Positions 46,323-49,539 are shown, counted from the stretch's first letter. The stretch is DNA of 64,000 bases from Candidatus Magasanikbacteria bacterium RIFCSPHIGHO2_02_FULL_48_18 (GCA_001784285.1 MFQC01000003.1:144159-208158), one strand, 5' to 3'. Translations and numbers: made by a program. Notes: generated by a model from the letters alone, not told the origin.

Positions 46323-47690
46323 TCATGATAATAAAAAAGAACGCCCCCGCCGTATTTTTTGATGAGCAATGGCAAAACGATGCGCTTCATCCCGTACATG
46401 GATCAATACTTTTTTATTTCGATACACCCACCGCACAAACGCGGAATTTTTCTCGCCAAGAACAAACTCGTTCTTTTTTCTGTCCGGTCCTTTGGCAATG
46501 CCAACAACGGGAATATCAATTTGTTTCTCCGCAAAAATTTTTTTCACGCAATTCACTTGCGGCTTTCCGCCGTCAACCAAAAAGACATTCGGCAAAGGCC
46601 ACTCTTGACTTTTGACAGTTGACTTTTGACAGTTGACTTTTGACGCCATTGACTCTGAGGTCTGACAACTGGTGAGCACATGCTTCAGCCGCCGCTCTAT
46701 CACTTCGGCCAGACAATCCACATCGCTCTGCCCTTTGACCGTTCGTATCGTAAAATGGCGGTATTCTTTTTTGTCGGGCATTCCATTTATAAAAACAACC
46801 ATCGATCCAACTTTGCCGGCCGATCCAAAATTGGAAATATCGTATCCTTCAATGCGCCCGTACTCAGCGGCTGTCCCATGCGTCAGAGGATCATGGACAA
46901 ACGACGCATTGAGCAAGGCAATATCTTGAATGCGTTGCAATGACGCAATCTGATCGTGCAAACGAGCCGCTTCTTCAAAGTCATGATTCTTGGACGCTTC
47001 ACGCATGTGTGTTCCCAATGTTTTGATCAATCGCTTTTTTCCTCCTCTTAAAAACGTACGAAGCGGCTGGATCACTTTTTCTGTATATTCTTTTGAGGAA
47101 ATTTTTCCGGTGCAAACGCCGAGACACTCGCCAATTTGATAATAAAAACAAGGCTTTTTTTTTGACAATTGACTTTTTTGTTGTTTTTGACACGTTGAAA
47201 AGAAAAATAATCGGCGAAGGAGCGTCATCGTTGCTTTGGTATTAAGTCCAGGATATGGACCAAACATAAACGCAAACTGCTTTTTTCGTAATTTCGTACG
47301 ATTCGTAATTTCGTACATGCTCTTCAATTCATGCGCCCGTATCGGAATTACCTGGGGAAATTCCTCTTTTGTCATGACAATATAATTCCAACTTTTGTCG
47401 TCCTTCCCATCCACGTTATATTTGGGCTGATATTTTTTGATAGCATTGGCTTCTAAAATAATTGCTTCCAAAACTGAATCGGTTTGTCTCCAATCAATAC
47501 AGCCAACCTCATGAATCATGTGTTCAATCGGACGCGGGGTTCGCGCGCCGGCAAAATACGAACGCACGCGATTGCGAAGCGATGTGGCCTTTCCGACATA
47601 GATCAATTCTTTTTTGCGGCTATAAAAAAGATAGATGCCCGGCGCATCGGGCAGGTCGGAAAGCGCTGTCTCAATGTTTTTTTGCGTCAT
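46323..47690 (-). CDS. uvrC: Excinuclease ABC subunit C, truncated form lacking the C-terminal (HhH)2 domain.
   Basis: GIY-YIG N-terminus (GIYLFYSRKKELIYVGKATSLRNR). UvrB-interaction helix HDFEEAARLHDQIASLQ. RNase H-like endonuclease domain ending ...HVRDEAHRFAIAHQK. The ORF stops about 150 aa short of canonical UvrC. Confidence 0.8.
   Translation of the reverse strand: MTQKNIETALSDLPDAPGIYLFYSRKKELIYVGKATSLRNRVRSYFAGARTPRPIEHMIHEVGCIDWRQTDSVLEAIILEANAIKKYQPKYNVDGKDDKSWNYIVMTKEEFPQVIPIRAHELKSMYEITNRTKLRKKQFAFMFGPYPGLNTKATMTLLRRLFFFSTCQKQQKSQLSKKKPCFYYQIGECLGVCTGKISSKEYTEKVIQPLRTFLRGGKKRLIKTLGTHMREASKNHDFEEAARLHDQIASLQRIQDIALLNASFVHDPLTHGTAAEYGRIEGYDISNFGSAGKVGSMVVFINGMPDKKEYRHFTIRTVKGQSDVDCLAEVIERRLKHVLTSCQTSESMASKVNCQKSTVKSQEWPLPNVFLVDGGKPQVNCVKKIFAEKQIDIPVVGIAKGPDRKKNEFVLGEKNSAFVRWVYRNKKVLIHVRDEAHRFAIAHQKIRRGRSFLLS
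46605..46646. repeat. Three tandem 14-nt repeats (ttgacttttgacag x3) lying inside uvrC and kept in frame.
   Basis: Three direct copies; the third ends ...gacgc. Total length 42 nt, so the reading frame is kept. Encodes KVNCQKSTVKSQ in the UvrC linker. Confidence 0.6.
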
Positions 47691-47813
47691 ATTAAAACGT
47701 CATTGGCACTTTTTTCATCTTCGCATAATGGACCGACACAACAGTAACCACTATAAGCAAAAGCAAAACGGATTAAGAGATTATACGTGAAGAAAAAAAT
47801 ATCCACAATATAT

Positions 47814-47841
47814 TTGACGAAATTTTCAAAAAGGGTATACT
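47814..47841 (+). promoter_or_regulatory. Sigma70-like promoter (TTGACG-16-TATACT) pointing rightward into the uvrC/foreign-gene intergenic region.
   Basis: -35 TTGACG at 47814-47819. 16-nt spacer. -10 TATACT at 47836-47841. Confidence 0.3.
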
Positions 47842-47947
47842 TCTTCTGTTATGATTTTTAAATCGCGACAATCCGTTCAAGCCGCATATTATTACAACAG
47901 CTCCGCGCTAGGGTTGTTGTAATTCTTGACATTTTTTGTCAGTATAG

Positions 47948-47975
47948 CCGCCCTAGCCGGGCGGTTTTTTTTATT
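47948..47975 (+). terminator. Rho-independent terminator.
   Basis: ccgccc-tagcc-gggcgg followed by a 9-T run. Confidence 0.55.
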
Positions 47976-48040
47976 CGAAAATGCACTTGGCGCCTGAATG
48001 TTTCAGGAGCCGACCACATTTCCGAAACCAAAACCATAAC

Positions 48041-48148
48041 AGCACTTTCGCGTTTGATTGCCTTCGAGCGGGTTCTGTCTCCGCAACGGAGACAGCCCTG
48101 AGCCGATACAGGCGAAGAAAGCGAGAAGGCTATCAACGCGAAAGTGCT
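48041..48148 (+). promoter_or_regulatory. Structured ~110-nt leader or MITE-like element bounded by a perfect 14-bp inverted repeat, immediately upstream of the RBS of the GC-rich gene.
   Basis: agcactttcgcgtt (48041-48054) and aacgcgaaagtgct (48135-48148) are perfectly complementary. Internal 9-bp hairpin ctgtctccg-caa-cggagacag (48075-48095). GGAGG RBS at 48154-48158. Confidence 0.4.
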
Positions 48149-48164
48149 ACAGAGGAGGAAAAAA

Positions 48165-49436
48165 ATGTGGAAAAATTTTGCGGCTCTCGAAGATCATCGC
48201 GCCCACGCGGACTCGCCGCTAGGCCACATCCCGATCCCTGGTCGGGAGTGGTACGGTATGCGCGGTCTCATGACCAATGCCCCCCTCATGATCGCGCCCG
48301 GCGGCATTGAGTGGGAACTCATCGAGGCCCTTCGAGGCCGGGGAATCGGCCCCCGCGAGGTCGTCGAGGTGGATGACCTAGTCCTCGACTGCGCGCGGGG
48401 CCCTGTCGCTGACAAAATCCGCCGCTGTGACGGAATCCGGCCGTTCTGGTTCGGCCGGACCGAAGAGGAGCTCTTCAATGAGCTCGGCATGCCGGCCGCG
48501 ATCACAGCCAACCAGATGAGGGATCTCAACTGCAAGGCGATCTTTCGGATGATCGCGAAGCAACAGGGCTTCGGTCATCTGGTACCCCTGAATGGGGTCG
48601 GTACGACCGAGGCACACGCGCTTGAGACGTTCGAGCGCATCCGGGCCATGCTCGGCCACGACGGCCACCCGATTCCCGACGCGGCCATCCTCAAACAAAC
48701 TGGACTCCTGTCCGGCGCCGGGATGGAGGTCCACACAACGACGGATGGTGTCAAGGGCTACTGCCGGCGCCAGCTCGACGGCAAGCCCATGATCATCGAG
48801 GCGGCCTACCTGCGGCACATGGCCGCCTCGGCACACTGGAATCTGTCCGCCAGTGGCTGGAGCAGGGCAGGCACAACAGTCAACTTCATCTCCGGCGGGG
48901 TATGCCACGAGGGCAACCTGTACGCCTCGCATGCACAGCCAATCCCCGGACTCTTGCTCAAGGACATGGCCACCATGTACTGGATCGGGGAGCACTGGAT
49001 TCGGGAATGGTGGAAGATGGGTTTCCGTGAGATGGCCGTGGGTATTGACTTCATCAAGGTCCGCGGCTTGTGCGGCAGGGTTCGGTGGTACGCCATTGAA
49101 CCGAACATCTTCCGCCCGCCGGCGCCACGGTACGGATTCGCGCTCGGCGAGCAGATCGCACCACGGCTCGGTGGACGCTGGGCCATTGCCCAGTCGAACG
49201 TCTACCCGGCTCCGGGAGCCGCGGACAACTTCCGCGAACTGGCGCGGCTCCTCAGGGGGCTCCTGTTCGACGGCAAGAGCGGCGCCGTCCCCACGCTCGT
49301 CGAGCTCTTGCCCCATGGCAAGTTCCAGGCGTTCTGTGTCGCCGAGAACGGCTGGAAGGCAATGCGGCTCCTCACTCGGGTCAAGGAGCGCGTCGGGGAC
49401 ACAAAGTCGGTCGCGATCCCTGATCTCGACCGCTAG
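48165..49436 (+). CDS. Compositionally foreign (GC-rich) gene encoding a ~424-aa protein with ATP-grasp-like C-terminal motifs. Function unknown.
   Basis: Strong G/C third-position codon bias, unlike every other gene in the window. GGAGG-6nt-ATG start. Motifs GTTVNFISGG and AVGIDFIKVRGLCGRVRWYAIEPNIFRPP resemble the ATP-grasp R-x-N...GG and GxD...E-x-N motifs. The antisense 373-aa ORF is a GC-rich shadow. Confidence 0.6.
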   Translation: MWKNFAALEDHRAHADSPLGHIPIPGREWYGMRGLMTNAPLMIAPGGIEWELIEALRGRGIGPREVVEVDDLVLDCARGPVADKIRRCDGIRPFWFGRTEEELFNELGMPAAITANQMRDLNCKAIFRMIAKQQGFGHLVPLNGVGTTEAHALETFERIRAMLGHDGHPIPDAAILKQTGLLSGAGMEVHTTTDGVKGYCRRQLDGKPMIIEAAYLRHMAASAHWNLSASGWSRAGTTVNFISGGVCHEGNLYASHAQPIPGLLLKDMATMYWIGEHWIREWWKMGFREMAVGIDFIKVRGLCGRVRWYAIEPNIFRPPAPRYGFALGEQIAPRLGGRWAIAQSNVYPAPGAADNFRELARLLRGLLFDGKSGAVPTLVELLPHGKFQAFCVAENGWKAMRLLTRVKERVGDTKSVAIPDLDR

Positions 49437-49456
49437 GAGGATAAAAGGAGGAAAAC

Positions 49457-49495
49457 GCGGAGCGCTCACCATGAGCCGCTCCGCCATCCTTTTTT
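49457..49495 (+). terminator. Rho-independent terminator. It may also serve the convergent uvrA.
   Basis: gcggagcg-ctcaccatgagc-cgctccgc followed by catcctttttt. Confidence 0.6.
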
Positions 49496-49539
49496 GCATG
49501 TGTTTGAGACGCGCGCAAAAAAGGATGAAAAAACAACTT

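Follow-up and report, generated by a model that had tools for sequence, protein, structure and literature searches.

Stem-loops in the 5' untranslated region (UTR) that stabilise messenger RNA (mRNA) include the ompA 5' hairpin of E. coli and the aprE and ermC leader stem-loops of B. subtilis, which act at or within a few nucleotides of the 5' end. Units of about 100 bp with perfect terminal inverted repeats (TIRs) and hairpin potential, present in a lineage-specific manner at intergenic sites in transcribed leaders, are known among bacterial miniature inverted-repeat transposable elements (MITEs) and small palindromic repeats (Correia, RUP, BOX and REP-like sequences). Ribosome-mediated attenuators, among them those of the trp, pheA and his operons, join a short open reading frame (ORF) with in-frame regulatory codons to mutually exclusive antiterminator and terminator structures, the stop codon being placed so that the terminating ribosome masks the antiterminator and a U-tract terminator standing before the gene; the bmrCD and mef/mel leaders are drug-sensing members of this class (PMC4191407, PMC4335068). 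Here, we analysed a 64 kb stretch of DNA from Candidatus Magasanikbacteria, of the Candidate Phyla Radiation (CPR/Patescibacteria); this whole stretch is termed the window, and all coordinates are counted within it. Directly upstream of a GC-rich gene for a predicted PGM1-like ATP-grasp ligase, the window contains a 108-nt inverted-repeat element that had been flagged in a first-pass annotation of the sequence. We favour, at roughly even chances, the reading that this element is an autonomous stem-loop of the 5' UTR, specific to its lineage and set in a spacer that changes fast, downstream of a conserved leader-peptide attenuator of the ligase gene, and that it modulates mRNA stability or processing at most. 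It is probably a passive or stabilising add-on, a stabilising role being something we infer.

The element and the ribosome-binding site (RBS) that follows it are positioned as follows.

48041-48148, plus strand: flagged element, a 108-nt branched stem-loop (repeat finder and RNA folds)
48154-48158 and 48165-48167, plus strand: Shine-Dalgarno (SD) sequence GGAGG and start codon ATG of the ATP-grasp gene (read from the sequence; the N-terminus aligns with orthologues)

A perfect 14-bp inverted repeat bounds the element, with AGCACTTTCGCGTT (48041-48054) pairing with AACGCGAAAGTGCT (48135-48148), and the helix goes on inward with GAT/ATC and then GCCTTC/GAAGGC (48054-48065 and 48125-48136, 92% complementary). 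The outer helix thus comprises 14+3+6 bp, and inside it lie a 5-bp helix bearing a perfect 9-bp hairpin, CTGTCTCCG-CAA-CGGAGACAG (48075-48083 and 48087-48095), and a 3-bp hairpin. Sequence reading and the repeat finder bear out the perfect 14-bp terminal repeat that the first-pass annotation had reported at 48041-48054 and 48135-48148, the repeat finder also recovered its inner 9-bp hairpin at 48075-48095, and the closing helix does end, as described there, 5 nt before the GGAGG (48148 versus 48154). The annotation had further proposed that the RNA be folded and compared with random expectation. Over 48035-48170 (136 nt) the fold reaches -63.1 kcal/mol, compared to -35.1 +/- 3.4 kcal/mol in 200 dinucleotide shuffles, none of which was as good (z-score, z = -8.3), and is therefore stable far beyond the shuffled sequences. 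Likewise, a perfect inverted repeat of at least 14 bp within 150 nt occurs once in the window and never in 30 block-shuffled windows. The fold of the element is the same in all contexts (316-nt, 393-nt and 5'-truncated constructs), and the hairpin is therefore a real, unusually stable and autonomous fold. Because RNA of the minus strand is as stable as that of the plus strand (-62.4 kcal/mol, z = -6.3), the strand in use is not readable from the fold.

To compare the element with homologous loci, we used seven further distinct lineages that carry an orthologue of the ligase gene (L001, L004-L006 and L138-L140), each 34-47% identical to the window copy, giving eight distinct lineages with the window's own locus (W) included. 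The first-pass annotation had suggested looking for covariation with such loci; the element is absent from all seven, and their spacers show no significant similarity to it (Smith-Waterman with shuffles, P = 0.05-0.67). The two borderline cases (P about 0.05) are AAGAAAGCG in L004 and CTATCAAcGcGAAA versus CTATCAAaGgGAAA in L006. From the T-tract of the upstream terminator to the start codon, the distance is about 22-50 nt without any hairpin in L138, L139 and L140 (about 10-35 nt to the SD), 91-105 nt with a single, shorter hairpin in L001, L004, L005 and L006 (z = -4.6, -1.25, -1.9 and -1.3, respectively), and 192 nt in W, where it contains both the 108-nt element and a second stem-loop, hairpin A. 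These comparisons suggest that the spacer between terminator and SD changes fast in evolution. A helix base TTGAT...ATCAA is common to W, L004, L005 and L006 by sequence reading. In L001, the spacer hairpin (1083-1140) encloses two direct copies of ATATGTATATAT, a further sign of palindromic or repetitive sequence recurring in this spacer.

As the element is absent from the orthologues, has no significant similarity to other spacers and leaves the SD outside its fold, it is neither a conserved sensor nor an RBS switch. The GGAGG and AUG lie outside the 108-nt element in the minimum free energy (MFE) and centroid folds of every construct, and SD accessibility is 0.42 with the element and 0.65 after its deletion in silico. 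We also considered that the element might shield the SD from the GC-rich coding region, and found no support for this, as the deletion did not lower SD accessibility.

Upstream of the spacer lies a predicted transcription attenuator, made up of the following features and followed by hairpin A and a linker.

47814-47841, plus strand: sigma-70-like promoter TTGACG-16-TATACT, serving the leader and the ATP-grasp gene (consensus scan, 10 of 12 positions)
47851-47922, plus strand: candidate leaderless leader-peptide ORF, MIFKSRQSVQAAYYYNSSALGLL and stop, with tyrosine (Tyr) codons at 47887-47895 and the stop codon at 47920-47922
47891-47923, plus strand: hairpin P1, ATTACAACA / TGTTGTAAT, a perfect 9-bp repeat in which Tyr and asparagine codons pair with the stop-codon region
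47926-47942, plus strand: small middle hairpin TTGACA...TGTCAG, lying inside the antiterminator helix (folds; a hairpin is present here in all loci)
47946-47974, plus strand: intrinsic terminator (terminator scan), with stem 47946-47966, loop TAGCC and T8 at 47967-47974
47967-48033, plus strand: hairpin A, an imperfect stem-loop with 32-nt arms, 72% complementary (repeat finder; fold -26 kcal/mol, z = -4.7)
48020-48040, plus strand: A/C-rich, G-poor linker TTCCGAAACCAAAACCATAAC (sequence reading)

The first-pass annotation suspected a regulatory RNA here, and one is indeed predicted, although it is the leader at 47814-47974, upstream of the region it had flagged, and not the flagged element. 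Equivalent leaders lie at 905-1068 in L001, 1-118 in L004, 1050-1207 in L006, 5896-6046 in L138, 1380-1530 in L139 and 395-552 in L140. In the six loci that reach it (W, L001, L006 and L138-L140), a -10 box precedes a conserved ATG by 9-10 nt, and a -35-like TTGAC is found upstream of that box in each; given this spacing, the transcript is expected to be near-leaderless and to have no SD for the small ORF. From a conserved UAUGA, an ORF of 17-23 codons with two or three in-frame Tyr codons runs in 7/7 loci (peptides MIFKSRQSVQAAYYYNSSALGLL in W, MNRGTTSQFGNVYYYNHSLRMK in L001, MNTKLNTAMYAYYKSLVRM in L138, MNTKVCTTMYAYYSPYFRM in L139, MKQVSWQSDMYYGNSSC in L004 and MKRVLWQSGMYYGNPSY in L006). 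Distances from the ATG to the first Tyr codon are 36, 36, 27 and 30 nt, all multiples of three, and the joint shuffle probability of an open frame in four independent lineages is about 0.006. Between L138 and L139, two of the Tyr codons show a synonymous difference, and in every case the stop codon of the ORF falls within the antiterminator strand or directly after it.

The alternative pairings of the leader are likewise supported across loci. The antiterminator box GCTAGGG (47907-47913) sits in the loop of P1, for which equivalent hairpins were found in L138-L140 by folding and in L001 by sequence reading. The terminator of W has an 8-bp stem with six GC pairs followed by T8, and an equivalent terminator is present in 8/8 lineages; its 5' half and loop are complementary to the box according to the repeat finder. 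Because MAFFT aligned the L138 group with its terminator stems shifted out of register, pairings were documented locus by locus with RNAduplex. The antiterminator/terminator duplex of W reaches -30.3 kcal/mol, and duplexes between the Tyr-to-stop segment and the terminator range from -18 to -34 kcal/mol in seven loci; as good a value was obtained in none of 500 shuffles for W, L001, L138 and L140, in 2 for L139, in 19 for L004 and in 22 for L006. The MFE fold is the long antiterminator in W, L001, L004 and L006, and P1 plus terminator in L138-L140. Box and target covary, being GCUAGGG/CCCUAGC in W and L005, GCUCAGG/CCUGAGC in L001 (a paired insertion) and GUCAGGAUG/CAUCCUGAC in L138 and L140; between L004 (GCUAGG/CCUAGC) and L006 (UACUAGG/CCUGGUA), the box changes from G to A and the target, in compensation, from C to U. 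An intrinsic terminator thus stands between promoter and gene, and a mutually exclusive antiterminator is supported across loci.

Taken together, these features make the leader a candidate Tyr- or stall-sensing, ribosome-mediated transcription attenuator that is conserved and lies outside Rfam; translation of the small ORF and sensing by the ribosome are steps that we infer from sequence comparison. The proposed promoter would start an almost leaderless transcript that opens with the Tyr-containing ORF of 17-23 codons. A ribosome at the stop codon would cover the antiterminator box and so let the terminator form. If it instead halted at the Tyr codons, or under the action of a drug, the ribosome would open P1 and leave the box free to pair with the 5' half of the terminator, so that RNA polymerase would read through. 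Either the supply of charged tRNA-Tyr or drug-induced stalling, the latter as in the bmrCD or mef/mel leaders, could act as the signal. Hairpin A and the 108-nt element, being downstream of the terminator, would occur only in readthrough transcripts. The element itself most likely arose locally, through insertion of a palindrome or through palindrome growth by template switching, and would now be at most a structural module by which the mRNA is protected or the RBS insulated, with the SD 5 nt downstream staying single-stranded.

In its candidate ORF, its competing structures, the placing of its stop codon and its U-tract terminator, the leader resembles the trp, pheA and his type described above. 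Unlike those attenuators, it uses Tyr codons, of which there are only two or three, and its mRNA is seemingly near-leaderless and without an SD. It also precedes an ATP-grasp peptide-ligase-like gene in a CPR bacterium rather than an amino-acid biosynthesis operon, and it matches no Rfam leader family, the best match, Phe_leader, scoring 23.9 bits where the gathering score is 55. Among the matches listed for the leader pattern CAATYCGN{3,13}TAYTATKRCAAC in genome contigs, none adjoins a ligase homologue; the pattern is loose and matches by chance. The element, for its part, resembles the ompA, aprE and ermC stabilisers in being a stable, independent hairpin just 5' of an accessible SD, but is far larger (108 nt, branched) and lies about 190 nt from the putative transcription start, so that it would need prior processing to reach a 5' end. 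By itself the flagged hairpin matters little, being a stem-loop of the 5' UTR that one lineage has and that gives no sign of sensing anything. The candidate attenuator, which has a leaderless Tyr micro-ORF and good comparative support, is absent from Rfam and belongs to the poorly studied CPR bacteria, is more interesting than the element, as is the conserved GC anomaly of the ligase gene described below.

The first-pass annotation was right that a small hairpin lies upstream of the element, although the loop of this CCTGAA-TGT-TTCAGG structure (47993-48007) has 3 nt and not 4, and it forms the tip of the longer hairpin A. A/C-rich stretches comparable to the linker are found 5' of the SD in L001, L004, L005 and L006. 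Separately, CTTCTTCTGT (47840-47849), located between -10 box and leader start codon, could pair along its whole length, counting two G-U pairs, with ACAGAGGAGG (48149-48158), which holds the ligase SD; as most of CTTCTTCTGT is upstream of the predicted transcription start, this is probably chance.

Several observations weigh against the reading of the element as a passive or stabilising, lineage-specific stem-loop. Only eight distinct lineages could be compared, and fine-scale covariation is absent among strain copies, since the eight retrieved contigs with an identical protein are 100% identical over the intergenic region and gene. Helices as perfect as these, of 14 and 9 bp, imply that the element arose very recently or that pairing is under selection, and a neutral element is therefore not the sole reading. 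Furthermore, the spacer of four relatives also holds a hairpin, the TTGAT...ATCAA base of W recurs in three of these relatives, and the similarity to L004 and L006 is borderline; this hints that some hairpin in the spacer may be functional and partly homologous. On a view that we consider unlikely, the element would be a functional RNA site in the 5' UTR, for example a target of ribonuclease (RNase) III or a binding site for an RNA-binding protein, possibly the ligase itself, whose effect would be to detach the leader from the mRNA or to give feedback on expression, and the hairpins of the relatives would be its diverged counterparts. Such a site would fit the stem-loops seen in this spacer in 5/8 lineages, the CTATC motif that W, L004, L005 and L006 share besides the helix base (sequence reading), the purine-rich GAAGAAAG left unpaired in the multiloop and perfect helices compatible with selection for pairing. 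It fits poorly with the three lineages that have no hairpin, with the folds of L004, L005 and L006, which are no better than shuffles (z = -1.3 to -1.9), and with the borderline similarity (P about 0.05), which is not significant after allowing for multiple tests. A riboswitch or RNA thermometer gating translation of the downstream gene, which the first-pass annotation had put forward, is highly improbable. Its attraction is a very stable, branched 5'-UTR structure that ends 5 nt from the SD; against it, the element never pairs with the SD or AUG in any construct and is found in 0/7 orthologous loci, leaving no conserved ligand pocket and no covariation, no alternative fold rivals the -63 kcal/mol helix, and regulation would already be accounted for by the separate, conserved candidate attenuator. 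Consistent with the annotation's own remark that no known riboswitch class could be recognised, an Rfam scan of the whole window at gathering scores returned nothing relevant, and a scan of 47700-48250 at E<=10 returned only weak small RNA, microRNA(-like) and leader matches far under the cut-offs, with nothing beyond chance microRNA-like matches for the element.

A mobile origin, also raised in the first-pass annotation, is a possibility that we hold to be real, if on the unlikely side: a MITE-like or small palindromic element of 108 bp with perfect 14-bp TIRs would have inserted between the A/C-rich linker and the SD and be transcribed as a passenger. That idea stood insofar as the unit is TIR-bounded, confined to this lineage and without significant similarity to orthologue spacers, its perfect terminal repeat occurs only once in the window, and the spacer of W is about 90-180 nt longer than that of any orthologue, roughly the size of the element. 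Excising 48041-48148 leaves CCATAAC joined to ACAGAGGAGG, which resembles CAATAACAAACAGGAGG of L004, and the dinucleotide AC flanks both ends. As a duplication, however, these two base pairs have a random chance of 1 in 16 and make no convincing target-site duplication, and the interior is branched with an off-centre perfect hairpin rather than a simple end-to-end palindrome. Neither full nor partial further copies were found in the window, where two mismatches on the repeat arm and blastn-short gave only self-matches, and none in about 10 kb extra of the same contig, in the loci used for comparison, in IMG/VR (paired-arm pattern), or in PLSDB plasmids and GenBank phages (both in distant mode). 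Compared to the palindromic families introduced above, which it resembles in size, TIR, hairpin potential, site and lineage-specific presence, the element is therefore single-copy in the sequence searched, with no clear target-site duplication and no related insertion sequence element. Still less probable, to the point of being quite improbable, is an action on the minus strand, as a hairpin barrier or terminator for uvrA transcripts leaking antisense to the ligase gene toward uvrC. Among the minus-strand genes uvrB, uvrA, uvrC, murB and secA, the ligase gene alone is on the plus strand, and the equally stable minus-strand fold is followed by a U-rich tail, GUUAUGGUUUUGGUUU; yet that U-tract is interrupted, the terminator scan made no call, what looks like a good bidirectional terminator already lies at 49485-49527 between uvrA and the ligase gene, and the element is missing in orthologues with the same gene order.

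The gene downstream of the element and the structure that follows it are listed here.

48165-49436, plus strand: GC-rich gene (64% GC; GC at third codon positions, GC3, 80%) for a 423-aa PGM1-like ATP-grasp ligase
49485-49527, no strand assigned: likely bidirectional terminator, a perfect 13-bp inverted repeat CATCCTTTTTTGC...GCAAAAAAGGATG

The ligase protein is 100% identical to one in NCBI from a metagenome-assembled genome, and had no match in Pfam, NCBIfam, PADLOC or PHROGs, and a sequence-profile search of the PDB returned noise only. A full HMMER search found 179 relatives, some distant ones among them matching ATP-grasp_3 (PF02655, E = 4e-6). An AlphaFold2 model of the ligase (predicted local distance difference test score 70) was searched with Foldseek and matched 3wvq/3wvr, which we take to be PGM1 structures, and 8ynd/8ynq at E = 1e-15 to 1e-13; with 8yi6, PurK and PurT also matched, E values ranged from 1e-15 to 1e-10 overall, and the protein is assigned to the ATP-grasp fold. 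The best match (E = 1.7e-15, probability 1.0) spans nearly the full length at about 16% identity. Three other element types were rejected. A retron msr-msd does not fit, as the downstream protein lacks an RVT match and has an ATP-grasp fold instead of a reverse transcriptase; an integron attC site does not fit, as the GTT/AAC cores are oriented in the reverse of such a site; and a type III toxin-antitoxin locus does not fit, as there are no tandem repeats.

PGM1, the ATP-grasp peptide ligase of pheganomycin (Noike et al. 2015), is described as coupling two partners, an unusual, amino-acid-like carboxylate and a peptide of ribosomal origin (PMC8939145). The window ligase is like PGM1 in its structural match and, as PGM1 uses a ribosomal peptide, in having a small ORF directly upstream. 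Unlike PGM1 and the Streptomyces peptide ligases 8ynd/8ynq, it has no sequence-level family match and no accompanying biosynthetic genes here, and a leader peptide is the better explanation for the small ORF. It is doubtful, though conceivable, that the whole unit, with its near-leaderless Tyr-rich micro-ORF, attenuator, variable hairpin spacer and GC-rich PGM1-like ligase, is an undescribed CPR/Patescibacteria module between uvrC and uvrA. The micro-ORF peptide would then be both sensor and ligase substrate, in the manner of a minimal ribosomally synthesised and post-translationally modified peptide, and the GC-rich coding sequence and large 5' stem-loops, the 108-nt element among them, would have been selected to shield the mRNA from AU-directed RNases.

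Along the window, the minus strand carries secA, murB and uvrC, the plus strand next the element and the ligase gene, and the minus strand again uvrA and uvrB. In 4/4 CPR/Patescibacteria loci whose contigs reach both neighbours (W, L001, L138 and L139), the ligase gene is flanked by uvrC and uvrA and runs opposite to them; the ligases of L001, L138 and L139 are 34-39% identical to the window copy, and L006 has a GIY-YIG gene upstream of its ligase. The first-pass annotation had regarded the gene as foreign and the element as a possible remnant of its acquisition, a view against which the recurrence of both this gene order and the high GC3 in homologous loci argues. GC3 of the ligase gene is 63-80% in all eight lineages, compared to 35-49% in flanking genes (about 45% for the neighbours in W). 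Since the gene is GC-rich and in the same uvrC/uvrA position in homologous loci, it is not a recent import, and its GC-richness has been kept in each lineage. That this GC3 persists across orthologues only 34-47% identical to the window copy means that high GC is no mark of recent horizontal transfer here, which is a caution for scans that equate GC islands with foreign DNA. The PGM1-like ligase family occurs in few genomes and is placed between uvrC and uvrA wherever both are visible. No ligase loci were found by a protein-profile search of the genome-contig collection, and the sole match of the same kind of search in metagenomes was a contig already in the comparison set.

The inverted repeat CATCCTTTTTTGC...GCAAAAAAGGATG is situated between the convergent ligase and uvrA genes, one of its arms having a run of T and the other a run of A, and likely closes the unit; it is the only other perfect inverted repeat of at least 13 bp in the window. 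On the minus strand, an ORF of 373 codons (48378-49499) runs antisense to nearly all of the ligase gene and is probably a by-product of its high GC3.

Typical UvrC proteins have about 600 aa and a C-terminal helix-hairpin-helix domain. The UvrC of the window (46323-47690, minus strand) has 455 aa, and those of L138 and L139 have 433 aa; GIY-YIG, UVR and RNase H-like domains fill the window protein to residue 441, and the C-terminal helix-hairpin-helix domain seems to be missing. Finally, the distant ligase relatives in L008 (2415-5315) and L009 (187-2796), 25-29% identical, have no such leader and belong to another operon. In both, a GATase/peptidase_C26 gene comes after the ligase, together with one of about 180 aa without a family match, a context that may hint at gamma-glutamyl or peptide chemistry for the ligase family, and in L008 the ligase is preceded by an overlapping, acidic ORF of 86 aa.

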